Shown here: piece by piece, positions 43,526 through 59,331 of the stretch
Position numbering within the stretch: position 1 is the first letter of the stretch
How the letters are laid out: the number at the start of each line of letters is the position of its first letter
Assembly: GCA_004347965.1 (NCBI GenBank)
Contig: QNVF01000002.1
Coordinates: forward strand, 18,895-82,894
Source of the DNA: Candidatus Nezhaarchaeota archaeon WYZ-LMO8
Lineage (GTDB): Archaea > Thermoproteota > Methanomethylicia > Nezhaarchaeales > WYZ-LMO8
DNA length: 64,000 nt
Reading direction: 5' to 3'
The notes under the pieces: generated by a model
Seen by the model: only the letters and a program-made list of their open reading frames with translations
Told to the model about the DNA's origin: nothing
The model's database searches: none
Made by a program: the position numbers and the translations under genes

Positions 43526-44551
43526 GTGGTGACCTACTTGAGATACGTAAAGATGCTTAAAGAGAACTTCAAGGACTTCTTTGAGACCTTAAAGAAGTTA
43601 GGAGAAGTTCACGCCCCAGTTAGGAGGGGAAGACTCTTCTCGTTCACTAAGGTGGACTCACCGGGCGAAGTAGCTTTGAACTACAATAGGACAATGCTAC
43701 CTCCAAAGAAGTACTTCGTGAAACCATTTGAAGAAGTGCTCAAGATCAAGGTGGGCAAGGGCTACGAGCTCATAGTTGAGGAGCCTAAAAGCTTAGTTCT
43801 ATTAGGTTTGCACGCTTGCGATATAAATGCCCTAAGAGTATTGGACAGCGTATACCTTGACGAACCGCAAGACGATTACTATCAAGTTCGAAGAGCTGCT
43901 GCTATTGTGATAGGAGTTTCATGTGAACCTGACGAGTACTGTTTCTGTAAGTCTATGGGCACGGACTATGCATGGACCGGCTTTGACCTCTTCCTTCATG
44001 AGCTGGGCACCTCTTACTTAGTAAGAGTTGGTAGCTCTAGGGGTGAATCAATAATAGAATCTATGAGCAACATTATTGGCGAACCTACTAAGGAGGACTT
44101 TATTAAGCTTCGAGATCTTGAGCTTAAGAGGTCAAGGATGTTCAAGAAGATCCTCAACACATCCCTCTTACCCGACATAGTAGACTCTCTACATGAAAGC
44201 GAAGTATGGGTGGTCTTCTCCGATAAATGTGTAAGCTGTGGTAGTTGCAACTTGGTATGCCCAACCTGTCGATGTTACGATGTGACTGAGAAAGTCGAAT
44301 TAAACCTTCAAGAAGGTGTCAGGGTCAGACGATGGGATTCCTGCTTCATCAGAAGCCATGCTCTCGTAGCTGGAGGCCTTAACTTTAGGCCTACAAGGCT
44401 AGATAGATTCAGACACAGGTACAACTGTAAAAGCTCTATAGATCCTAGAACTAACCTCCCCTTCTGCGTAGGCTGTGGTAGATGTAGTGCTTTCTGTCCA
44501 GCTGGGATAGATCACGTTAATGTGTTAAATGCTATTTGGGGGTTAGCGTGA
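43526..44551 (+). CDS. hydB: Sulfhydrogenase beta subunit (AsrA-like Fe-S subunit)
   Basis: Two 4Fe-4S motifs are present, CVSCGSCNLVCPTCRC and CVGCGRCSAFCP. It is the first of a four-gene cluster that ends with the NiFe large subunit. Confidence 0.65.
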   Translation: MVTYLRYVKMLKENFKDFFETLKKLGEVHAPVRRGRLFSFTKVDSPGEVALNYNRTMLPPKKYFVKPFEEVLKIKVGKGYELIVEEPKSLVLLGLHACDINALRVLDSVYLDEPQDDYYQVRRAAAIVIGVSCEPDEYCFCKSMGTDYAWTGFDLFLHELGTSYLVRVGSSRGESIIESMSNIIGEPTKEDFIKLRDLELKRSRMFKKILNTSLLPDIVDSLHESEVWVVFSDKCVSCGSCNLVCPTCRCYDVTEKVELNLQEGVRVRRWDSCFIRSHALVAGGLNFRPTRLDRFRHRYNCKSSIDPRTNLPFCVGCGRCSAFCPAGIDHVNVLNAIWGLA

Positions 44552-45432
44552 TGAGTAGCGCATATCTCCCTAAGCTGGCCAAGATCGTTGAAGTAACTGA
44601 AATGACCGCAATTGAGAAGCTCTTCAAACTTCAATTCGTTAACGAAGAAGATGCTAAATCCTTCACCTTCAAGCCAGGCCAGTTTGTTGAGGTGAACGTT
44701 CCCGGTGTTGGTGAATCACCAATATCAATATGTAAGTCTCCTACTAGGCCTGGGCCTCTAGAGCTATTGATTAGAAGGATTGGAAGAGTTACGAACGCCA
44801 TTCATAAGCTAAAGCCAGGAGATGTAGTTGGTATACGAGGCCCATTTGGCAATGGCTTTCCCATGGAAAAAATGAAGGGCTACGATGTACTGTTGATAGC
44901 TGGAGGCTTAGGGATAGCACCTTTAATGTCGGTCTTGCAGTATGTTATTGATAGACGAGAAGATTACGGTGAAGTCACCTTGCTCTACGGTGTAAGAAGC
45001 TATCAAGAAGCTCTGTTTAGAGACATGGCTATCGACCTCATAAAGCACCCTGAGAAAGCATGTCTCAGAACGTTCCTCTCTTACGAGCGGGATGATCCAG
45101 TTTTCGTAAGCTTAATGAGAGATCATCCCGAAAACGTTAGGAAAGGAGTTGTAACAGTCTTGTTTGAGTGCGCAGATCCCTACATAAAGCCGGATAAGGT
45201 ATGCGCTGTTGTTTGCGGTCCACCAATAATGTACAGGTTCGTCTTAAAAGAGCTCGCAAAGAGAAACATACCACCCAATAACATCTACATCACTTTAGAG
45301 AGGAGGATGAAGTGCGGTATAGGGAAATGTGGTCACTGCATTGTAGGTGGAGCAACAGCTATTAGGTACATATGCAAAGATGGTCCTGTCTTCACTTACT
45401 CTGATGTTCTGTCAGTTAGGGGGCTTGTGTAA
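44536..45432 (+). CDS. hydG: Sulfhydrogenase gamma subunit (FAD/NAD(P)-binding, 2Fe-2S; AsrB-like)
   Basis: It has the ferredoxin-reductase-type fold (FKPGQFVEVNVPGVGESPISI, LIAGGLGIAP) and a C-terminal 2Fe-2S site CGIGKCGHC. Confidence 0.65.
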   Translation: MGVSVMSSAYLPKLAKIVEVTEMTAIEKLFKLQFVNEEDAKSFTFKPGQFVEVNVPGVGESPISICKSPTRPGPLELLIRRIGRVTNAIHKLKPGDVVGIRGPFGNGFPMEKMKGYDVLLIAGGLGIAPLMSVLQYVIDRREDYGEVTLLYGVRSYQEALFRDMAIDLIKHPEKACLRTFLSYERDDPVFVSLMRDHPENVRKGVVTVLFECADPYIKPDKVCAVVCGPPIMYRFVLKELAKRNIPPNNIYITLERRMKCGIGKCGHCIVGGATAIRYICKDGPVFTYSDVLSVRGLV

Positions 45433-46205
45433 TGACTGGTAATAAGATAAAGGTTGGCTTCTACTCTCTAACTGGCTGTGCAGGCGACTTCCTAAACATC
45501 CTAAACATGGAGGATAAGTTGCTCGAAGTTTTCAAACTGCTGGACGTTGTAGAGTTTGCGCTTGCAAGTAGTAAGGTAGTCCATGAGAAAGTCGATGTGG
45601 CCTTCATCGAAGGCTCTGTAACGACTCAAAAGGACTTAGAAGTTCTGAAGAAAATAAGAGAAAACTGTAACGTACTCGTAGCTTTAGGTAATTGTGCTGT
45701 GTGGGGTGGAGTTCAAGCAGAGCTAACAGGTTTAGATGCTAAAGACCTCATGAAGTCCGTGTACAACACAACTGAGAACTACTATAGCTTTCTAGGAGAG
45801 CACAAAGCTGTATCTGAAGTGGTCAAAGTAGACTATGAGCTTCCAGGCTGCCCAATAGAGGTAGAAGAGTTCCTTGAGCTCCTCATAGATGTAATCAGAG
45901 GGGTGATTCCAGAGTTCAAGGACTATCCGGTCTGCGTAGAGTGTAAGATAAGGGAAATTCCATGCTTAATAGTCGAGAGGGGAGAAGCATGTCTAGGACC
46001 GATAACCGTTGGCGGTTGCAAAGCTCGATGCCCCTACTACAATGCTCCATGTATCGGATGCAGAGGCCCAGTAAAGGAGGAGGCCAATGTTGCTGGTGAG
46101 CTCTCAATGTTGTTAGAGAAGGGGTGGAAGAAACAAGAGGTAATTAACAGGTTAAGACTCTTTGCAGCCAGGTATAAAGACATAGCTAAGCTCTTGGAGA
46201 GGTGA
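45432..46205 (+). CDS. hydD: NiFe hydrogenase small (delta) subunit
   Basis: The N-terminus LTGCAGDF and a C-terminal Cys cluster (CVECK...C...CKARCPYYNAPCIGC) fit a small subunit. It is directly upstream of the large subunit gene. Confidence 0.65.
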   Translation: MTGNKIKVGFYSLTGCAGDFLNILNMEDKLLEVFKLLDVVEFALASSKVVHEKVDVAFIEGSVTTQKDLEVLKKIRENCNVLVALGNCAVWGGVQAELTGLDAKDLMKSVYNTTENYYSFLGEHKAVSEVVKVDYELPGCPIEVEEFLELLIDVIRGVIPEFKDYPVCVECKIREIPCLIVERGEACLGPITVGGCKARCPYYNAPCIGCRGPVKEEANVAGELSMLLEKGWKKQEVINRLRLFAARYKDIAKLLER

Positions 46206-46211
46206 GCTCAG

Positions 46212-47504
46212 ATGGTTAGAGAGATTGTAGTCGAGCACGTAGCTAGAATTGAAGGCCACGGAGCCATAAAGGTCCTAGTAGATGGAGACAAAGTGAAAGA
46301 AGTTAAGTTCGAGGTTTTTGAGGGGCCTCGCTTCATAGAGAGAATCCTCGTTGGAAGGACCTACTATGAAGTGCCTGACATAGTTGCGAGGATATGCTCG
46401 ATATGCCCAGATCCACACCAAGTGGCTGCGGTTAGAGCCTTAGAGAAAGCCCTCGGAGTAGCTGTTGACTGGCAGATAGAGATGCTTCGAGAACTTCAAC
46501 TGCTAGCTGACGTCATATCAAGTCACGCGCTACACCTGTATTTACTGGCTCTTCCAGACTATCTAGGATACCCAGATGCTCTTAGCATGGTTGACAAATA
46601 TGGAAGAGAAGTTAAGTTAGGCTTGCAATTAAAGAGAGCCGGCAATACTTTAAAGGAGCTATTAACGGGCAGATCTATTCATGGTTGTACTGTTAAGCCT
46701 GGAGGTTACACGAAGGTGCCATCGCCTTCAGAACTTGAGAAGTTAGCTGACATGTTAAGGCAATCGATGGAGGGCGCAGTCTTAGCAGTCAAGTTGTTCA
46801 GCTCCTTAAAGTGTCCAGACTTTGCAAGGGATGAGAACATGTTCATGGCCGTCGATCCAGGAAGCGTTTACGGTTTCTCTGGCAATCATATCTTAGTATC
46901 AACTGGAGAAAGGTACCCTGTTGAGGACTACAAGAAGCTGACAAATGAGGTTACAGTTCCTCACTCAACCGCTAAGCACTCATACTACAACGGCAAATCG
47001 TTCATGGTTGGAGCTCTTGCGAGGATAGCTTTGAACGGAAAGAAGCTTAAAGGTCAAGCAGTTGACATGCTAAGGGAGTTAGAGCCAAAACTCGACTTAG
47101 CTAATCCCCTTACCAATAATTTAGCTCAAGCTATAGAAGCTGTTTACGCTGTTGAGAGAGCTATAGAAGTTATAGATGAATTGTTAGACAAAGGGTTAAA
47201 GCAAGAAGTGATGATCGAGATTAAGCCTAAAAAGGGTATAGGTGTAAGTGCTGTTGAGGCGCCTAGAGGGATCCTATATCACTGTTATGAGCTTGACGAT
47301 GAAGGGAGGGTGGTGAAAGCGGACATCATAACACCAACCGCACAAAACGTTGCTAACATAGAGAAGTACATTAAGATCACAGCTGAAAGGCTTCTACTAA
47401 AAGGCGAGGAGAAGTTGGAGCTACCATTAGAGCTTGTCGTTAGAGCCTACGATCCTTGCATATCGTGCTCAGCCCATTTAGTCAAGGTCGTAAAGCTACG
47501 CTAA
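46212..47504 (+). CDS. hydA: NiFe hydrogenase large (alpha) subunit
   Basis: RIEGHGAI is the L1 motif, RICSICP is the N-terminal Ni ligand pair, and DPCISCSAH is the C-terminal Ni ligand pair. Confidence 0.8.
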   Translation: MVREIVVEHVARIEGHGAIKVLVDGDKVKEVKFEVFEGPRFIERILVGRTYYEVPDIVARICSICPDPHQVAAVRALEKALGVAVDWQIEMLRELQLLADVISSHALHLYLLALPDYLGYPDALSMVDKYGREVKLGLQLKRAGNTLKELLTGRSIHGCTVKPGGYTKVPSPSELEKLADMLRQSMEGAVLAVKLFSSLKCPDFARDENMFMAVDPGSVYGFSGNHILVSTGERYPVEDYKKLTNEVTVPHSTAKHSYYNGKSFMVGALARIALNGKKLKGQAVDMLRELEPKLDLANPLTNNLAQAIEAVYAVERAIEVIDELLDKGLKQEVMIEIKPKKGIGVSAVEAPRGILYHCYELDDEGRVVKADIITPTAQNVANIEKYIKITAERLLLKGEEKLELPLELVVRAYDPCISCSAHLVKVVKLR

Positions 47505-47550
47505 ATCCATTTAAACCCTAATTTTCACTTCATCTCGGAGATCTTAGTGA

Positions 47551-48000
47551 ATGAAGTATCTCATAGCTTGTTTGGGAAGTCCTTTAATGGGCGATGACAG
47601 TATAGGCTTAGCGGTAGCTCATGAGCTAGCTAAGCGAGGATACGAAGTTGTTGCATGTGGCTCAGACCTATCACCAGTACTAACTAGGATGGAGGACATA
47701 GACCTACTAATAGTTGTAGATGCAATTGACTTGGGAGCAAAGCCAGGATCAGTCTTCGTACTTAAGCTAGAGGAAGTAAATGAGGTACCTGCTCGAACCT
47801 CTCATACTATAGGGGTAATAAGCATGCTTAAGATCATGATGAAAGTCTTCCAAAAACCTATGGACACATACTTAGTTGGTGTTCAACCTGAGCGAGTGAA
47901 ACATTCAACTGAGCTTACACCAAAGGTTAGGTTAGCTATCAATGAGGTAGTGGTAAAGGTTGAGGAGCTTATTAAGGAATTCCAAGAAAATAAGAGCTAA
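47551..48000 (+). CDS. hycI: Hydrogenase maturation endopeptidase (HycI/HybD family)
   Basis: MKYLIACLGSPLMGDDSIGLAVAHEL and VVDAID carry the conserved Asp/His residues of the family. It follows the large subunit gene. Confidence 0.75.
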   Translation: MKYLIACLGSPLMGDDSIGLAVAHELAKRGYEVVACGSDLSPVLTRMEDIDLLIVVDAIDLGAKPGSVFVLKLEEVNEVPARTSHTIGVISMLKIMMKVFQKPMDTYLVGVQPERVKHSTELTPKVRLAINEVVVKVEELIKEFQENKS

Positions 48001-48075: not shown

Positions 48076-48414
48076 ATGGCTGATGAGATAGAGTTTGTTG
48101 TTGTAGGTAGAGTGACGGATAACGTAAAGAACTTACTCTTTGAGAACTTCAATAACATTAAGTCTAAGGGTTTTAGGAGAGTAAACCTCAGGTTCTTCAC
48201 TGATGAGGCTCCTTTAAGATGCCTCGAAGAAGTAAGAGACTTGCTTCTCTCAAACATGGTGGTTTCAATTAAACTATACGAGCATGGATTACACAAGCTA
48301 TCTAATGTGCTTAATCAATTAGCTAAGCAAGGGAAGAAGATTGTTATATTATCTGATGAAGCTCTTACACCTAAGATCAAAGATTTGTTAAAGGATTTAG
48401 TAGATAAAGAGTAG
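48076..48414 (+). CDS. Hypothetical small protein (112 aa)
   Basis: A codon-plausible ORF between hycI and the radical SAM gene. No motif is recognised. Confidence 0.3.
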
Positions 48415-48430
48415 TAGTGGGGGTTTCTTC

Positions 48431-49945
48431 TTGTTTGACGTGCTTCTAACGACTGATAGGACCATGATGACCAATCATCACGGCAAGGAATTCTTAGGCT
48501 TTATGGCTACTGGCCCAGCTATAGGATTGCCTGAGCCCATCTGGATGTGGATCTGTGCACCTAAGATGAGGACTGATGATCTCGGTAGAGTATGGCAAGC
48601 CCCCTATGGCATGAGGAAGATAGAGTCCGTGCTTATTAATGCCGGATTTAATGTTGCCACTGTAGATCCAGATCACTTAGATAAACACCTAAAGCACGCC
48701 AAGGTTTTGCTGTTAAGTCACCACGACTACTTTGCTCTATGCCCTCCAAGCTCAGAATGGTGGTCAATAACCAAAAAAGAGCCTGTTAATGCTAAGAGCT
48801 TCAGGAAGCTCATGGATAGGAGGTCTATTAGAGAGGCCAAGCGTCGAGGATTAAAGATAATTGCAGGTGGACCAGCAGCTTGGCAGTGGCTATGGAAGCT
48901 TGATAAATGGATTGGATGGGATGTCGATACAGTCGTCGATGGAGAGGCTGAGAAGATAGTGACAGACTTGGTGTCAAAAGCTCTGAACAACGAGTCTCTT
49001 CCGAGATACGTCTACGTTGGAATAGACGACGTTCCAAAGCTTGAAGAGATACCTACGATTAAGCATGCTAGCATAAATGGTCTAATCGAAGTCACACGAG
49101 GTTGCCCTCGAAACTGTAGGTTTTGCTCGGTAACGCTAAGACCGTTAAGGCACTACACGCTTGACATGATAGAGCAGGAGCTTAAAATCAACGTTTCAGA
49201 AGGTGTTACTGAAGGGATAATCCACTCTGAGGACGTTCTCCTCTATGGATCGAGGAGTGTAGAGCCTGAGCCTAATGCAGTCATCAAGCTCCACGAGCTC
49301 GTCAAGTCGTACTACAAGAGGATTTCGTGGAGCCATGCAAGTCTCTCGGCTATTAAGAGGGCCGAGGAGAAGTACAAGCTCGTCTCAAAAGTTAGGGAGA
49401 TAATATGCGATGAAAACCAAGACTACTGGGGAGTTGAAGTCGGCATTGAAACTGGGTCAGTAAACTTAGCTAAGAAGATAATGCCAGCAAAATCTGCCCC
49501 CTATCCTGCTGAGGCTTGGCCAAGCATCGTGGAAGAGGCGTTCGCCATAATGCATGACAATAACATAATTCCTGCAGCAACACTAATTCTAGGGCTACCT
49601 GAAGAGACGGAGGACGACGTGATGAGAACAGCCGAGCTTATAGATAGACTTAGGCCCTATAGGAGTCTCATAGTGCCAATGTTCTTCGTACCTATGGGCC
49701 ACTTCAAAACCCAAGATTGGTTTACTAGAGTTAAAGTAAAGGATGAACACGTAGAGGTCATGAAAAGGTGCTTTTACCACACAGTTTACTGGGCTGACGA
49801 CATAGTGAGCAAATTTTACTTGAAGGGATCAGTTTACGCTCCACTAAGATGGTTAATAAAGCTGTTCCTGAGATACGCTAAGTGGAAGATTAGAGCTGTT
49901 GAGAGGAAGCTAGAGGTAGGGAAAATCGTTAAGAAGGATTATTAA
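48431..49945 (+). CDS. Radical SAM protein with an N-terminal B12-binding-like domain (class B-like)
   Basis: The CX3CX2C motif is [14 protein letters not shown]. The N-terminal pattern [13 protein letters not shown] ... GEAEKIV parallels the cobalamin-binding domain of the neighbouring class B enzyme. Confidence 0.65.
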
Positions 49946-49986
49946 GGACCTAAGCGAAGTGGCATAAAAAGAGTAGAGCAGTCTAA

Positions 49987-50793
49987 TCACATCTCTATGC
50001 CTATTGGACAGGCTTTTAGGCAGAGACCGCAAAGGTGTGCGCTGGGAGACCTATACTCGCTCGGTAGGAGGATCTTTATTATGTGTGGGGGAACTTCTTT
50101 GCGTCTTAGCTCCTCAATCCTTTTGAAGTACTCAATAGTGTAGACTTTGGGCCCCCTATATCTTCGACACTTGTATTGATCTACAGTACCATCACCTGGT
50201 AAGGCCTTCACAGGACATGCTTTAACGCACCTGAGTCCACACACTTCAGGTTTACATATTAGTCCCCATGAGAAGCCATTTGCTATAATTGGATCTGGCT
50301 CTAATGGTGCTGATGTTATGACGGAAGCAAACCTAACTCTAGGACCAAACTTAGGGACAACAACATAAGATGCTGGAGTGAACTCGCCAAGGCCTGCTAA
50401 AACTGCAGCATGCCTGTGAGAAAAGGTGGCTAGCATTTTAACTTTAGGCTCCTTCCCCTCCATCACCCTTACTTCCCTATAGTAATCGGGTTCATCAGGG
50501 CTTATGGGAGTGGCGTCAAACCCTTTGTCCTCTAAGTAGAAGGTGATGTCGTATACTATCGAGCGAAGCCTTTCATTCAGATGGTTGTATGCTTCCTCAT
50601 ATAGCGGACTTGGAATGCTTCTGACTATGGAGAGGGGGACACGTAAGCCAACAACAATGATACTCTTGGCATTCGGGAGGATGTCTGAGGGTCTATGACC
50701 CTCAGGGGCTAATGAAAACCTCTCAGCTGAGGCTATACCGACTAAGTGAGCTCCAACTCTCCTTGCTACTTCCTTCAAAACCTTGCTATCCAT
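49987..50793 (-). CDS. QueG / reductive-dehalogenase-like Fe-S protein (short form)
   Basis: The N-terminus VARRVGAHLVGIASAE resembles the QueG N-domain. Two Cys clusters are present, CKPEVCGLRCVKACP and CGLCLKACP. At 268 aa it is shorter than bacterial QueG. Confidence 0.5.
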   Translation of the reverse strand: MDSKVLKEVARRVGAHLVGIASAERFSLAPEGHRPSDILPNAKSIIVVGLRVPLSIVRSIPSPLYEEAYNHLNERLRSIVYDITFYLEDKGFDATPISPDEPDYYREVRVMEGKEPKVKMLATFSHRHAAVLAGLGEFTPASYVVVPKFGPRVRFASVITSAPLEPDPIIANGFSWGLICKPEVCGLRCVKACPVKALPGDGTVDQYKCRRYRGPKVYTIEYFKRIEELRRKEVPPHIIKILLPSEYRSPSAHLCGLCLKACPIGIEM

Positions 50794-50922
50794 ACTCTGA
50801 GAGGGTACGTCTTGAGCTATTTAAGCTCTTTCTTTCGTCTCAACCGTCTGTAGAGCGATAAGGCTTATGCTACATCCTTACGGTCATTGAAAACTTCATA
50901 CGAACTACGGGGCTAGGCTGCT

Positions 50923-52389
50923 ATGGTTAAAGGAATTGTCAATACTTTAAAAGATAAAAGCAGCGTGAAATTAGTAATAAGTAGAAGGTTCATGGCTAGG
51001 GTTCTATTAGCAGTTCCTCCTGGTTGCGAGGAGCTCGAGATATATCGAGTAACGGGTATTAAGGCCCCTCCCCTCGGATTAGCATGGATAGCAAGTGTAC
51101 TTGAAGGTCATGGGCATGAAGTTAAGATTGTTGATTCTCCAACACTAGGTCTCTCAACTTCTGATCTTGTTAAGATAGTGAAGTCATGGTGCCCAGAATT
51201 TGTCGGCTTAAGCTCTCTAACTCCAACAATTAAGCTTGCCTATAAGACCGCTAAAGCCGTCAAGGTTGTTGATAGAGATATTAAGGTGATAATCGGGGGA
51301 GTACATGCAACATTTATGTGGCGTGAAGTGCTTAATGAATGTCCTCATGTAGACTATGTTGTGCTTGGCGAAGGAGAGGAATCCATGCTGCAGCTGGTTG
51401 AATGCCTAGAGAAGGGAATTAAACCACGAAGCGTTTTGGGTATAGCAATGAGAAATGAGAGTGGCGAGCCTGTGTGTACGGGACCTTGGAGGCTTGTGAA
51501 CCTAGAAACTCTACCTCCACCTGCCAGACACTTACTACCAATGGACAAGTACACGGTCCTTGAAAAGCCAATAAGGGTTGCACATCTGATGGCCAGTAGA
51601 GGTTGTCCATATGGATGCATATTCTGTGTAACTAGCTACTACTTTGGCAGGAGAGTTAGGTTTAGGAGTGTTGAAAGTGTCCTTAATGAAATTGAGGAGT
51701 GCATAGACAAGTACAAGGCTAAGATCTTAATTTTCACCGATGATGAGCTCACAATTAATAGGAAGTGGATGGAGAGCCTCATAAAGGGATTGAGAGATAG
51801 AAACTTAGACGTAGAGTGGACCTGTGGTGCTAGAGTCGATAACGTCGATGAGAAGCTCTTAGTAAAGATGTACTCAAGTGGTTGCAGAGCGATATACTTT
51901 GGAGTTGAGTCAGGATCTCAAGAAACGATTAACAGAATAGGGAAGAGGATAAGCTTAAGCCAAGTTAAGAAGGTATTCGAGATCGTCAAGAGAATAGGAT
52001 GTTCTGCCGTTGCCACATTCATGCTAGGCTTTCCGTGGGAAACCGTAAGCGACATGAGGCAGACTGTGAGGTTTGCATTAAAGCTTGATCCCGATTACGC
52101 GCAGTTCACGTATGTAACCCCGTATCCTGGCACACCACTTCACGAGATGGCTAAGAAATATAATCTTATAGTTGACCACGACTGGGGTCACTACACGACC
52201 ATAAGGCCGGTCATGAGAGGCTTTCACTTTACTATCAAAGACGTTGAGACCATATTTAAAGAAGCCTACTTGAGATTCTATGCGAGATTAAAATTCTTGG
52301 CTAAACATATTAAATCTGGGACCTTCAAAGCTTTCTTAAAAATAATCTTCAATAACGTGATATTACCAAGGTTTAGAAGTTTTTCTTAG
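50923..52389 (+). CDS. Class B (cobalamin-binding) radical SAM enzyme. The likely start is MARVLLAVPP at ~50992.
   Basis: The B12 domain reads VKVIIGGVHATFMW...VVLGEGEE. The radical SAM motif is ASRGCPYGCIFC. Confidence 0.75.
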   Translation: MVKGIVNTLKDKSSVKLVISRRFMARVLLAVPPGCEELEIYRVTGIKAPPLGLAWIASVLEGHGHEVKIVDSPTLGLSTSDLVKIVKSWCPEFVGLSSLTPTIKLAYKTAKAVKVVDRDIKVIIGGVHATFMWREVLNECPHVDYVVLGEGEESMLQLVECLEKGIKPRSVLGIAMRNESGEPVCTGPWRLVNLETLPPPARHLLPMDKYTVLEKPIRVAHLMASRGCPYGCIFCVTSYYFGRRVRFRSVESVLNEIEECIDKYKAKILIFTDDELTINRKWMESLIKGLRDRNLDVEWTCGARVDNVDEKLLVKMYSSGCRAIYFGVESGSQETINRIGKRISLSQVKKVFEIVKRIGCSAVATFMLGFPWETVSDMRQTVRFALKLDPDYAQFTYVTPYPGTPLHEMAKKYNLIVDHDWGHYTTIRPVMRGFHFTIKDVETIFKEAYLRFYARLKFLAKHIKSGTFKAFLKIIFNNVILPRFRSFS

Positions 52390-52686: not shown

Positions 52687-53262
52687 CTATAGTAAGGCAA
52701 GTTTATCAAGGATGTGTACGGCCAATACGAGGTAGAGCAACATGGTTAGTGGTACGTGAAGAACTCTCCAGTAGTTCTTAACAAACCTGGTTTTCACAAA
52801 TTTTCCCAGCACACCACTTATGACCACTACGATCATGAGGAAGAAGGTAAATAGACTTAGGAAATCTCCAGGTCTAATAGGCCAAAGCCCACCGATTACA
52901 TGAAGGCAAACGAAGATGAGAGATGCGATCCCTAATACGCAATGAATTGGTAACCAGATTTTAACGTCTTTGGGTGAAACCCTCTTTAAAAGGGAGTATA
53001 AGTTTGAAGCAACGAAGAGCGAGACACTAATCCATCCAAGTTGGTGGGCATAGCCTTTCAAAGTATCATCACGACGTCCTCTCCATCGATATCCCTCACC
53101 TTGAAGGATGAAGGCCACAGCGAACGATAAAAGTAGCAGGAGTAAGATGACTGTTGCCATCAATAAAATCTTGTTCAAACGCGTCTTAACCATCACACCA
53201 CCATAAGATATGCAGCTTATACTGCAAGATATAATATGCTTATATGCTTTGTTCTCCTCCAA
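52687..53262 (-). CDS. Membrane protein with 4 TM helices and His residues in TM2/TM4 (possible b-type heme binder). The start is perhaps MVKTRL at ~53193.
   Basis: The hydropathy pattern shows four helices. Conserved-looking His residues sit in IHCVLGIASLIFVCLHVIGG and VLHVPLTMLLYLVLAVHIL. Confidence 0.35.
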   Translation of the reverse strand: MEENKAYKHIISCSISCISYGGVMVKTRLNKILLMATVILLLLLLSFAVAFILQGEGYRWRGRRDDTLKGYAHQLGWISVSLFVASNLYSLLKRVSPKDVKIWLPIHCVLGIASLIFVCLHVIGGLWPIRPGDFLSLFTFFLMIVVVISGVLGKFVKTRFVKNYWRVLHVPLTMLLYLVLAVHILDKLALL

Positions 53263-53377: not shown

Positions 53378-53908
53378 TTAATACCTCTCGCCCACCATTC
53401 TCGGTGAGATCTTCCAGAGAAGTCTCACCCTCTCAACACCATTAATCTCCTTTATCACCATAGCCGTACCGGCTGGTACAAGCTTCTCCCACTCACCACC
53501 TTCAATCATTAACCTCCTAACAATCGTCCCACTAACACCGGGTATAAGAGGGGTCTCACGAACTTCAAGTCCGTAATTCCTGAAGAGTGCTCTAACAATC
53601 TCATTGTTGCTGTAAACCACCTGAGCTCTTGGAGTGTAAGAGAGAACGTGTCTCGGCCACTCATAATTGCTCGGTATGTTGTCTACAGGAACTATGTAAA
53701 CTTCTTCATATAAGTCTCCAAGACCTGCACGTATCATCTCTATTCTCTCGCCAGCTGTAAAGGGATTATCCATTGTAAAGCTATACTGAGCTGCAGCAAC
53801 AACGATTATCAATTCATCAATCTTCTCAAGAACGTGGTTAATTGAGTAAAGGTGCCCATTGTGGAAAGGTTGAAATCTACCGATGAAGAGAGCACGCGTC
53901 TTCAACAC
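53378..53908 (-). CDS. nadM: Nicotinamide-nucleotide adenylyltransferase (archaeal type)
   Basis: GRFQPFHNGH is the (H/T)xGH nucleotidyltransferase motif in its archaeal NMNAT context. The length is 176 aa. Confidence 0.8.
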   Translation of the reverse strand: MLKTRALFIGRFQPFHNGHLYSINHVLEKIDELIIVVAAAQYSFTMDNPFTAGERIEMIRAGLGDLYEEVYIVPVDNIPSNYEWPRHVLSYTPRAQVVYSNNEIVRALFRNYGLEVRETPLIPGVSGTIVRRLMIEGGEWEKLVPAGTAMVIKEINGVERVRLLWKISPRMVGERY

Positions 53909-57316: not shown

Positions 57317-57889
57317 ATGTCAAGAGCTGTTAGCGTAAGGAGCTTGAGGTTCTTCTCACAGGTAGCTGGACTAGTAGCATTAGCTGTAGTGCTCAAGTTC
57401 TTTGAGATACCGTATCCACCAGCCCCCTTCCTGAAATATGACGTCTCAGGTATACCATTAGTGCTCATATCATTCATATCGCTCAAGTACGCTTTGGGCA
57501 TCCTACCCATATATTATGTGATTCCTGTAACCGTGGGTTTTGATCCCATAGGTATGGCTATGAAGTGCCTAGCTGAAGCATCCACATTCGCACCGCTGAC
57601 ACTGATATACAGAGTAGCGTCAAAGATCTCGTCTGATGGAAGAGCTAGTCTATCAGCTGTTATTACAGCTTCTCTAGGTAGAGTTGCTATCATGTCTCTC
57701 GCAAACTACATAGTCACGCCATACTGGTTGTTGTGGGCAGGATGGCTGAAGGACCTTGAGACGGCCCGTGCAATCGTAGTTATATACCTACCACACATAG
57801 CAGTGTTCAACTTGACCCTGGCGTTAATCGTGGCATCAATTTCCATAACCGCCTACATAATCTTAAGGAGGTCAGGCTATTTGAAATGA
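57317..57889 (+). CDS. ECF transporter substrate-specific (S) component candidate
   Basis: 190 aa with ~6 TM helices. It is immediately upstream of the tandem ABC ATPase and T component genes and overlaps the ATPase start by 4 nt. Confidence 0.45.
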   Translation: MSRAVSVRSLRFFSQVAGLVALAVVLKFFEIPYPPAPFLKYDVSGIPLVLISFISLKYALGILPIYYVIPVTVGFDPIGMAMKCLAEASTFAPLTLIYRVASKISSDGRASLSAVITASLGRVAIMSLANYIVTPYWLLWAGWLKDLETARAIVVIYLPHIAVFNLTLALIVASISITAYIILRRSGYLK

Positions 57890-59331
57890 GGAAAGGAGGG
57901 AACTGTGTACTCGAAATAGCAAACCTTTGGTTTAAATATCCTAATGGAGACTGGGTGCTAAGGGGCTTAGATCTCAGCGTCAGTGAAGGAGAGCATGTAC
58001 TCGTGATAGGTGAGACGGGATCCGGCAAGACAACGCTAACCAGGATAATCACAGGATCTGCCAACCTCATTTATGATGGTATTCTAAAAGGACGTGTAGC
58101 AATAAATGGAATAAGTCTTGAGGAAAACACCGAAGCTTTCACCAGCCAAGTAGCCCTTATCGGGCAAAACCCCTACCTTTATTTCACTGAGCCTTTGGTT
58201 CGCCACGATCTCTATAGTTATGCCTTGAGTGTTCATGGTAACGTGGAACGTGCTGTCAAAGCTCTTAACAAAGCTATTGAAGTAACAGATATCCAGGACC
58301 TAATAGAAAAATACTTCTTTGAGCTTTCAGGTGGGCAGGCAAAGAGAGTCTTAGTGGCAAAAGCGTTGATCTCAAATTCCCAGCTTCTCTTATTCGATGA
58401 ACCGTTGATGTGGTTGGACGATGTGGGTCTCAAAGACTTCATAAACCTTCTTAACATATTGAAGGTTCTCAGAAGGTCGGTAGTGATTTTCGAACATAGA
58501 TTCATGCCATTGATAGAGCACGTCGATGAAGTTTATGTCCTCAAGAACGGGAAGCTTACACGTATAAGCAATAGATTGCATGCTTTTAAGGAGGCGGGTG
58601 GCAAAGTACATCATGGCTTCGATTGTGGTCCTAACTGCAAGTCATCAAGCAATGGTGGAAATGTTCTACTAGAGACCGTGGATGTACACTTCAAATACAG
58701 GAATAGCAGCGACTACGTGTTAAGAGGTATTAATTTGAAGTTGTGCAAGGGTGACTTAGTGCTATTATATGGATCTAACGGTCAAGGTAAGACAACTCTC
58801 TTAAAGGTTCTAGCTGGCTATTTGAAGCCTTCAAGAGGAAGGGTTACACGGAAAACAGATGTAATCTACATACCTCAAAACGTAGTGCTATTCTACACGG
58901 AGAGCACGGTAGAGAAAGAGGTCGTAGAGATCTGTAAGGCTAGAAAGATGAGCGATGTTCATGTGAAGCTTGGGATAGAAGCCGTGAAAAAGCTCGGCAT
59001 AGACCCCATGCAGTCTCCTTTCAATTTAAGCCACGGCCAGATGGTTAAGCTGGCCTTTGAGCTTGCTCGTACTTCAAATTCAGAGATTCTGCTCTTAGAT
59101 GAACCATTCTCCGGGTTGACATATGGAGACAGGCTTGAATTACTAAGACACTTAGTCGAAAGCAACTGTACAGCTATAGTAGCAACAAGCAACCTAGACG
59201 CCATCGGATCCCCTTACTGGACTAAGTTGTACAAGATAGAATCTGGTAAGTTGGTGGTGCTAAATCCTATCAGCTCACCTTCTCTCCTCTATGCCTCCAG
59301 ACTGTATGAAGAGATTATAGGTGTAGAGTGA
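57886..59331 (+). CDS. ECF/ABC transporter ATPase with two fused ABC domains (EcfA-EcfA'-like)
   Basis: Two Walker A motifs are present (GETGSGKTTL, GSNGQGKTTL). There are two signature motifs (LSGGQAKRV, LSHGQMVKL) and two Walker B motifs (LLFDEP, LLLDEP). Confidence 0.8.
   Translation: MRKGGNCVLEIANLWFKYPNGDWVLRGLDLSVSEGEHVLVIGETGSGKTTLTRIITGSANLIYDGILKGRVAINGISLEENTEAFTSQVALIGQNPYLYFTEPLVRHDLYSYALSVHGNVERAVKALNKAIEVTDIQDLIEKYFFELSGGQAKRVLVAKALISNSQLLLFDEPLMWLDDVGLKDFINLLNILKVLRRSVVIFEHRFMPLIEHVDEVYVLKNGKLTRISNRLHAFKEAGGKVHHGFDCGPNCKSSSNGGNVLLETVDVHFKYRNSSDYVLRGINLKLCKGDLVLLYGSNGQGKTTLLKVLAGYLKPSRGRVTRKTDVIYIPQNVVLFYTESTVEKEVVEICKARKMSDVHVKLGIEAVKKLGIDPMQSPFNLSHGQMVKLAFELARTSNSEILLLDEPFSGLTYGDRLELLRHLVESNCTAIVATSNLDAIGSPYWTKLYKIESGKLVVLNPISSPSLLYASRLYEEIIGVE

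Follow-up and report, generated by a model that had tools for sequence, protein, structure and literature searches.

We analyzed three consecutive genes in a 64,000-nucleotide stretch of the genome of Candidatus Nezhaarchaeota archaeon WYZ-LMO8 (contig QNVF01000002.1 of assembly GCA_004347965.1; hereafter, the window), for which an original prediction had proposed a new three-gene module composed of two cobalamin (B12)-type radical S-adenosylmethionine (SAM) enzymes and, between them, a short Fe-S protein resembling QueG and the reductive dehalogenases (RdhA). The table of open reading frames (ORFs) placed the first radical SAM gene at 48431-49945 on the + strand (504 amino acids [aa], TTG start), the middle gene at 49987-50793 on the - strand (268 aa), and the third gene, a B12 radical SAM gene, at 50923-52389 on the + strand (488 aa as an ORF). 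These coordinates and strands agreed exactly with those predicted, and the motifs quoted for the three proteins (CPRNCRFC, IIGGVHATF, LGEGEE, CPYGCIFC and LVGIASAE) were all found in the translations. The middle gene lies tail to tail with the first radical SAM gene and head to head with the third gene; because it is on the strand opposite to both neighbors, co-transcription with either radical SAM gene is impossible.

The class-B layout proposed for both radical SAM proteins, that is, a Rossmann/B12-type N-terminal domain together with a radical SAM barrel, was recovered by Pfam, Foldseek and alignment, whereas no curated NCBIfam cut-off was reached by any of the three proteins. On the basis of ORFs, domains, folds and synteny statistics, which were observed directly, we consider it probable that the three genes represent independent functional units that only recently became neighbors in one Nezhaarchaeales genus, two of them belonging to radical SAM families that modify lipids and the other being a stand-alone QueG-like gene.

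The radical SAM gene at 48431-49945 and its small upstream neighbor

The product of 48431-49945 is most likely an ortholog of GrsA, a ring synthase of glycerol dialkyl glycerol tetraethers (GDGTs). A cluster look-up showed ADX85470.1 of S. islandicus REY15A to be among the Saccharolobus members of the family, and the window protein aligned to it over 494 aa without gaps at 63% identity. The order of genes in the two Saccharolobus loci (L176 and L177) was pyrC, pyrD, two small ORFs, MarC, an Lrp/AsnC regulator, an RPB9-type Zn ribbon, a 79-aa ORF and the radical SAM gene, followed on the other strand by the gene for seryl-tRNA synthetase (SerRS) and his genes. Previous studies showed that Sa-Lrp is Saci_1588 and that the pyrE/B control region is at Saci_1596 (PMC3584215), that TFS2 is Saci_1587 (bioRxiv 10.1101/2022.12.17.520879), and that Saci_1585 is GrsA (bioRxiv 10.1101/2025.10.20.683597; PMC13459092). 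Counting of genes from the anchors Saci_1588, Saci_1587 and Saci_1596 therefore placed the Saccharolobus radical SAM gene (SiRe_1404 in S. islandicus REY15A) at the position of Saci_1585, and from this gene order we infer that it is the Saci_1585 counterpart. The orthology of the window gene to Saci_1585 is indirect, being drawn from its identity to ADX85470.1 and from the gene order in L176 and L177.

In the Pfam search, Radical_SAM was the sole match to this protein and the B12-binding model gave none, and the best NCBIfam model, TIGR04013, scored 88 bits versus a cut-off of 251. The radical SAM cluster motif CPRNCRFC is encoded at 49103-49126 on the + strand (residues 225-232). Among the seven Cys of the protein, only C225, C229 and C232, which form the CX3CX2C signature, were invariant among 53 family members, leaving one radical SAM [4Fe-4S] motif without auxiliary clusters, as has been described for Grs proteins (PMC13459092; PMC11186832). 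The N-terminal part was collinear with the B12 domain of the third protein (23% identity, E 3e-10); VDGEAE in the first protein paired with VLGEGE in the third, and the pairwise alignment assigned an 11-residue segment (48857-48889, +) as the counterpart of the strand-loop IIGGVHATFMW of the third protein, with G146, G147, P148, W151 and W153 of this segment invariant in the family. The AlphaFold2 model (pLDDT 88.8) contained alternating strands and helices in the N-terminal region, a radical SAM core, and long C-terminal helices at residues 438-463 and 467-503. The modeled N-terminal region is consistent with a Rossmann-type domain, and published models of GrsA likewise have a Rossmann-like N-terminal domain and two long C-terminal helices (PMC13459092; PMC11186832). 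The nearest solved folds in Foldseek were MgmA, MiaB/RimO, AprD4, CysS, TsrM and TokK, so that the divergent B12-like N-terminal domain anticipated for this protein proved right at the level of fold, both in Foldseek and in the alignment with the third protein. AprD4 is a cobalamin-free enzyme of the class-B-type fold, and the fold alone is therefore no proof of cobalamin binding by the first protein.

Identity within the family was 57-68% across Sulfolobales, Desulfurococcales, Thermofilaceae, Nitrososphaerota and Aigarchaeota, a broad spread across Thermoproteota as in GrsA; the taxa found here are those reported for Grs homologs, which are described as common in Desulfurococcales, Thermofilum and Nitrososphaerota. 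We also weighed the possibility that 48431-49945 encodes an uncharacterized but conserved radical SAM enzyme of Thermoproteota that acts with its small DUF5751-like partner (see below) on protein or RNA, in which case the protein at the Saci_1585 position would be a look-alike. Such an enzyme would account for the unusually high conservation across phyla and for the housekeeping genes found nearby (SerRS, methionyl-tRNA synthetase and lysine/arginine biosynthesis genes), and it would be compatible with a link to Saci_1585 made otherwise than by direct alignment and with the lack of a Pfam B12-binding match. However, the anchors Saci_1588 and Saci_1587 put the 63%-identical Saccharolobus ortholog precisely at Saci_1585, the architecture agrees with the published GrsA models, and the taxonomic range coincides with that of Grs; we therefore regard an activity other than ring synthesis as very unlikely.

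Other radical SAM families were also considered. The tetraether synthase Tes (GDGT-MAS; MJ0619, PDB 7TOL), defined by similarity to MJ0619, three [4Fe-4S] clusters and a rubredoxin-like site, was matched by neither radical SAM protein at E <= 0.001, though 7TOL was in the library; with only three conserved Cys in addition, the first protein is therefore not Tes. The methylthiotransferases MiaB/RimO have a similar fold, but their N-terminal Cys triad is not conserved in the first protein, and the NCBIfam scores were far below the cut-offs. Some Nezhaarchaeota carry methyl-coenzyme M reductase, for which reason MgmA/Mmp10 was weighed; the two radical SAM proteins scored 41.5 and 119 bits with TIGR04014 versus a cut-off of 360, and the MgmA structure PDB 9CCB matched them at only 1.3e-4 and 4e-18, and on these scores MgmA/Mmp10 was discarded.

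A small gene at 48076-48414 (+, 112 aa) separates hycI from the first radical SAM gene, and a GGGGG run follows its stop codon ahead of the TTG start at 48431. Its product matched Pfam DUF5751 with 23 bits, under the 27-bit cut-off, and gave a weak profile match (E 0.0023) to PDB 2RBG, the protein ST0493 of unknown function. In 52 of 76 loci, an iterative hidden Markov model search seeded with the 112-aa protein revealed a homolog directly upstream of the GrsA ortholog and in its orientation; the gap between the two genes had a median of -4 bp and was <=50 bp in 51 of the 52. The family is poorly conserved and fast-evolving, with R54 invariant and N60 nearly invariant in alignment A3. It was the sole conserved neighbor of the GrsA ortholog, the other neighbors being lineage-specific housekeeping genes, and 48076-48414 is probably co-transcribed with the GrsA ortholog.

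In contrast to Sulfolobus GrsA, the window gene and its counterparts in most lineages outside Sulfolobales are preceded by this translationally coupled DUF5751-like gene. In Sulfolobales a different ORF, of 79 aa, stands upstream of grsA (L176 3720-3959 and L177 3720-3959), and such a different, conserved ORF (77-113 aa) was found directly upstream of grsA in L111, L112, L115, L121, L123-L125 and L127 as well as in the Saccharolobus loci, a group of loci that presumably represents Sulfolobales. The Sulfolobales 79-aa ORF was judged not to be homologous to the DUF5751-like partner (hhalign probability 0.15%), and the DUF5751 gene of Sulfolobales, SiRe_0150, does not adjoin grsA (SiRe_1404). A partner of the DUF5751-like kind is not mentioned in the Grs literature cited here, and the protein may be an accessory factor of Grs.

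We propose that 48076-49945 constitutes a two-gene operon for the DUF5751-like protein and the GrsA ortholog. By analogy with the Sulfolobus enzyme, the [4Fe-4S]/SAM site would abstract hydrogen from the biphytanyl chains of GDGTs, probably with the additional use of cobalamin held in the N-terminal Rossmann domain, and the outcome would be closure of cyclopentane rings at C-7 of GDGTs.

The B12 radical SAM gene at 50923-52389

The third gene most likely encodes a B12 radical SAM protein of the Gmm family, whose members modify the tails of tetraether lipids; the assignment is to the family rather than to a reaction (methylation versus desaturation) or a subfamily. Pfam detected B12-binding (PF02310, 87.6 bits) and Radical_SAM (PF04055, 83.7 bits), the canonical domains shared with Gmm, Cgm, Pgm and Ted (Tg-Gmm WP_062369928.1, Saci_1785 and DRO69_02625). 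This bore out the class B radical SAM enzyme predicted from the motifs IIGGVHATF (51289-51315, +) and LGEGEE (51364-51381, +) in the B12 domain and CPYGCIFC (51604-51627, +), the radical SAM motif. Alignments with homologs, which are 465-477 aa long, all began at query residues 22-26, and a TTTAAAAG box, read by eye, is located at 50946-50953, 38 nt before an ATG at 50992. Because of the start of the alignments, the length of the homologs and the position of this box, the true start is probably M24, that is, the ATG at 50992, and the ORF from 50923 would be 23 codons too long.

Homologs with 74-75% identity were present in Verstraetearchaeota and other Nezhaarchaeales, and those with 51-56% identity in Desulfurococcales and Thermoproteales. 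In four of four Thermoprotei (Pyrodictium occultum, Caldivirga sp., a Desulfurococcaceae metagenome-assembled genome [MAG] and Thermoproteus sp.), the homolog (51-55% identity) abuts a SPASM radical SAM gene (L171 7425-8966, L172 4482-5987, L174 6425-7900 and L175 3485-4996), and this adjacency was kept though gene order varies between the lineages. The four SPASM neighbors (491-513 aa) are mutual orthologs with 53-75% identity; they scored best with the AhbD and NirJ2 models, below the cut-offs, and carry an N-terminal extension of ~135 aa and seven Cys in the C-terminal (SPASM) region. The glycerol monoalkyl glycerol tetraether (GMGT) synthase Gms has been described as an AhbD homolog with a ~100-aa N-terminal COG4001 extension (bioRxiv 10.1101/2023.10.20.563219), and genes for Gmm, a B12 radical SAM methylase, are often found clustered with gms, Thermoprotei included (PMC11214058). 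The sequences of the SPASM neighbors fit this published description of Gms. The third protein is only 23% identical to the first, to which Grs proteins are homologous; the family adjacent to Gms is therefore most likely of the Gmm type, and we infer the Gmm-family membership of the window protein from the Gms linkage in its relatives.

Alternatively, 50923-52389 might encode not a lipid enzyme but a BchE-like class B radical SAM protein acting on a cofactor or a protein, with the SPASM adjacency belonging to another pathway, for example tetrapyrrole modification. BchE was indeed the best NCBIfam match (TIGR02026), with 237 bits versus an equivalog cut-off of 481, the preference of the SPASM neighbors for AhbD and NirJ2 would suit such a pathway, and the Verstraetearchaeota homolog stands beside a CbiM/CbiQ cobalt transporter. 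Yet the score fell far short of the BchE cut-off, as with every curated model, and the SPASM neighbors carry the ~100-135-aa N-terminal extension that separates Gms from AhbD. The published study of Gms, which reported gms-gmm clustering in Thermoprotei, used AhbD as the outgroup, and it listed C. maquilingensis with Gms, Gmm group 1, GrsA and GrsB (PMC11214058); the C. maquilingensis member of the third-gene family is ABW01928.1. With these points in view, a role outside lipid modification appears unlikely for the third gene, and Gmm-family membership is preferred.

Clustering with gms and/or grs was taken as a mark of the Gmm family, for which co-localization with a grs gene is a hallmark in the literature, and the third gene lies ~1 kb from the GrsA ortholog. 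Co-localization of grs and gmm-family genes is documented in T. guaymasensis, A. profundus and Bathyarchaeota B1_G15 (PMC11214058; bioRxiv 10.1101/2023.10.20.563219), and the proximity of the grsA and gmm-type genes in the window matches this known pattern. As in the gms-grs-gmm cluster of T. guaymasensis, the grsA-hgm cluster of A. profundus and the ted-grs cluster of B1_G15, a ring synthase gene and a Gmm-family gene are located within ~1 kb; unlike in those clusters, the pair in the window is split by an unrelated gene on the opposite strand, and the linkage is confined to one genus.

Homologs of Gmm are functionally diverse; besides methylases (that of GMGT, Cgm and Pgm) they include a desaturase, Ted. 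With ~465 aa, the window protein is shorter than the length filters that have been published, >495 aa for Cgm and at least 500 aa for Ted. As a second unit, 50992-52389 would encode a cobalamin radical SAM enzyme of the Gmm family that shares its lipid-tail substrates with GrsA; its reaction would most likely be C-methylation, in a family that also holds a desaturase. The suggestion in the original prediction of a lipid modification of the GrsA/GrsB type was right for both radical SAM genes.

In a Verstraetearchaeota MAG (L173 6571-8270), a third-gene homolog with 74% identity is followed by genes for CbiM, a PDGLE-domain protein and CbiQ, components of a cobalt transporter of the energy-coupling factor (ECF) type. 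This adjacency could possibly reflect a link to cobalamin supply.

The QueG/RdhA-fold gene at 49987-50793

The middle gene encodes a stand-alone short member of the QueG/RdhA superfamily that is neither QueG nor a typical RdhA. The predicted QueG-like N-terminus (LVGIASAE) and the two Cys clusters were both found, with exactly eight Cys in the protein. The Fe-S cluster motifs span 50005-50256 on the - strand and consist of CKPEVCGLRCVKACP (50212-50256), C209 and CGLCLKACP (50005-50031). Alignment A1 of diverse homologs revealed that SHRH, AGLG, G150, R152 and all eight Cys are invariant. In addition, the HMMER alignment paired the nearly invariant R154 with position 305 of the PceA chain, and on this pairing R154 may be the counterpart of the catalytic Arg305 of PceA.

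Pfam gave only weak ferredoxin-type matches, and the NCBIfam models for reductive dehalogenase (TIGR02486) and QueG (TIGR00276) scored 45.4 bits versus a cut-off of 160 and 26.5 bits versus a cut-off of 200, respectively. A sequence search against the PDB yielded matches to PceA and QueG. The AlphaFold2 model (pLDDT 93.9) was assigned by Foldseek to QueG, PceA or NpRdhA in all of the top 46 PDB matches (E 6e-12 to 4e-7, TM ~0.5-0.63), after which came the B12 chaperones CblD and MMACHC. Thus the protein has the QueG/RdhA fold that had been predicted for it, and not that of a plain ferredoxin. It probably binds a corrinoid and two [4Fe-4S] clusters.

QueG provided the best fold matches (PDB 5D08, 5T8Y and 5D6S; E 6e-12, query-normalized TM ~0.57), with 5T8Y, 5D0B and 5D08 at E 6e-12 to 1e-11, and shares the AGLG core and both Fe-S motifs with the window protein. 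However, the QueG chains that were matched have 367-384 residues, whereas the window protein stops at residue 268, immediately behind its second cluster motif, and therefore is without the C-terminal tRNA-binding region of QueG. Identity as QueG was rejected on the absence of this domain and on the missed TIGR00276 cut-off. Archaea are not known to make queuosine, nor are the organisms that carry members of this ~265-aa family. Members of the family (L005-L084) are often automatically annotated as epoxyqueuosine reductase despite the missing QueG C-terminal domain.

The best sequence matches were to RdhA (E 1.5e-7 and 1.3e-6), with which the protein shares the corrinoid and double-[4Fe-4S] fold (PceA 4UQU, NpRdhA 4RAS and 8Q4H), and in phmmer its N-terminal GAxLVGIA region aligned with reductive dehalogenases. 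Unlike RdhA, it is roughly half the size, has no evident twin-arginine signal peptide in its sequence, and has no conserved gene for a membrane anchor or other partner adjacent to it. An RdhA identity was rejected on the missed TIGR02486 cut-off and the lack of a conserved neighboring gene.

Homologs were distributed in Bathyarchaeia, Geothermarchaeales, Jordarchaeia, Methanosarcina, Methanothrix, Methanoregulaceae and several bacterial phyla. A TATA-like TTAAATAG box, also read by eye, is located at 50818-50825 on the - strand, 24 nt upstream of the ATG of the middle gene; its position suggests that the gene is transcribed from a promoter of its own and that the transcript has little or no leader. 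As a third unit, 49987-50793 would encode a solitary corrinoid/double-[4Fe-4S] member of the reductase superfamily, expressed from this putative promoter and with no conserved association with either radical SAM gene. Corrinoid-dependent reduction is its most likely activity, and this would probably be a two-electron reduction of a small substrate.

Conservation of the gene order and its meaning

To evaluate the proposed module, we compared 80 loci of middle-gene homologs from species-representative genomes (10-kb flanks, tblastn with the window proteins) and 80 metagenome loci of GrsA homologs. In the flanks of the middle-gene homologs, neither radical SAM gene had a homolog, except in L021, where a weak radical SAM match (25%) was located 4 kb from the middle-gene homolog. 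Conversely, a middle-gene homolog was absent from all 80 GrsA-homolog loci, and a B12 radical SAM match near a GrsA homolog was found at a single one of them and was partial (L161). Clustering of all neighbors in 76 middle-gene loci revealed no partner conserved across lineages.

The full order was found only in this species (L001-L004) and in a sister species, GCA_038832765.1 (L169), whose three proteins are 93%, 91% and 85% identical to those of the window. A protein identical to the middle one, encoded in the same surroundings, was present in hot-spring assemblies, including GCA_038841295.1, and the closest named relatives were Candidatus Nezhaarchaeales and Nezhaarchaeota. The arrangement is lost in Nezhaarchaeota with orthologs at 67-88% identity. 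Their middle-gene ortholog with 79% identity is flanked by a phosphoglycerate-mutase-type gene and a HAD hydrolase gene, and orthologs with 67-69% identity lie beside an HD-domain gene and a flavoprotein gene. At L089-L091 (83-88% identity), the order hydA-hycI-small gene-radical SAM gene is kept and the other two genes are absent downstream, while in another Nezhaarchaeales genome the third-gene homolog (75% identity) is placed between an oligopeptide ATP-binding cassette (ABC) transporter and aconitase. The adjacency of the genes is real but confined to one genus, and the claim of a novel module is not supported. Of three findings that the original prediction had named as counting against its module, the lack of synteny elsewhere and the placement of the radical SAM proteins in characterized families were both obtained, and a plain-ferredoxin model of the middle protein was not.

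Several observations weigh against independence of the three genes and against the assignments made here. The order hyd-hycI-small gene-grsA-queG-like-gmm-like is kept in two species whose proteins are 85-93% identical, and weak selection for the whole order is conceivable, given its retention in the sister species. Three enzymes of cobalamin/Fe-S type stand consecutively, which is suggestive, and the middle and gmm-like genes are divergent with only ~130-200 bp between them, so that shared regulation of the two is possible. With regard to the assignments, GrsA and Gmm were identified from gene order, published descriptions and linkage, and not from alignment of the reference proteins themselves; a Gms-like gene is absent from the 64-kb window, and the closest homologs of the third protein (74-75%, in Verstraetearchaeota and Nezhaarchaeales) are not beside gms.

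The shared enzyme type, the retention in the sister species and the divergent middle and third genes are also what speaks for a single module, in which the QueG/RdhA-like protein would reductively activate the cobalamin of the radical SAM enzymes or would itself be a third reductase modifying lipid tails. Against this, the genes do not co-occur in either set of 80 loci, and the order dissolves within Nezhaarchaeota. Moreover, members of the middle family are spread over methanogens, Bathyarchaeia, Asgard archaea and bacteria and share no neighbor conserved across lineages, and GrsA and Gmm-family enzymes function in heterologous archaeal hosts, with no such partner described in the cited work. 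We consider a single module highly improbable. The idea that in this genus the corrinoid protein was recruited as a partner of grsA and the gmm-family gene, for reductive activation or repair of cobalamin or, as a third tail-modifying enzyme, for reduction of an oxygenated or unsaturated tetraether intermediate, seems likewise highly improbable. Independent units are thus preferred, and the arrangement is most likely ordinary and lineage-specific rather than a new three-gene pathway.

As for the wider neighborhood, hydB-hydG-hydD-hydA for a NiFe hydrogenase and hycI for its maturation protease are located at 43526-48000 (+), with Pfam matches to Fer4_22, FAD/NAD-binding with DHODB_Fe-S_bind, Oxidored_q6, NiFeSe_Hases and HycI. 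This agreed with the operon predicted upstream of the first radical SAM gene, except that the 112-aa ORF at 48076-48414, which had not been mentioned, intervenes. The order hydA-hycI-small gene-grsA was kept within Nezhaarchaeales at 83-93% identity (L089-L091, L163 and L169) and not in other lineages; the adjacency to the hydrogenase is therefore lineage-specific. Downstream of the third gene, 52687-53262 (-) encodes a 191-aa membrane protein with weak matches to cytochrome b561 and DUF4405, and 53378-53908 (-) an archaeal nicotinamide-nucleotide adenylyltransferase (187 bits against NF002243); both genes are kept in the sister species. The possible ECF-type transporter named in the original prediction, at 57317-59331 (+), includes a double ABC ATPase and a membrane protein of 190 aa to which Pfam gave no match, and showed no link to corrinoids.

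The finding mainly assigns functions to two genes, both of which fall in genetically characterized families. It predicts that the uncultured Nezhaarchaeales lineage makes cyclopentane-bearing GDGTs, which are probably also methylated or otherwise modified in their tails, and this prediction bears on the reading of lipid biomarkers from hot springs. Beyond these assignments, what deserves attention is the DUF5751-like partner of grsA and the orphan ~265-aa QueG/RdhA-fold family. If the corrinoid protein had been recruited as a partner after all, this would give a first function to a widespread orphan branch of QueG/RdhA proteins. The DUF5751-like gene, which is coupled to grsA across most Thermoproteota and absent from that position in the Sulfolobales models, may encode an accessory factor that has been missed in vitro.

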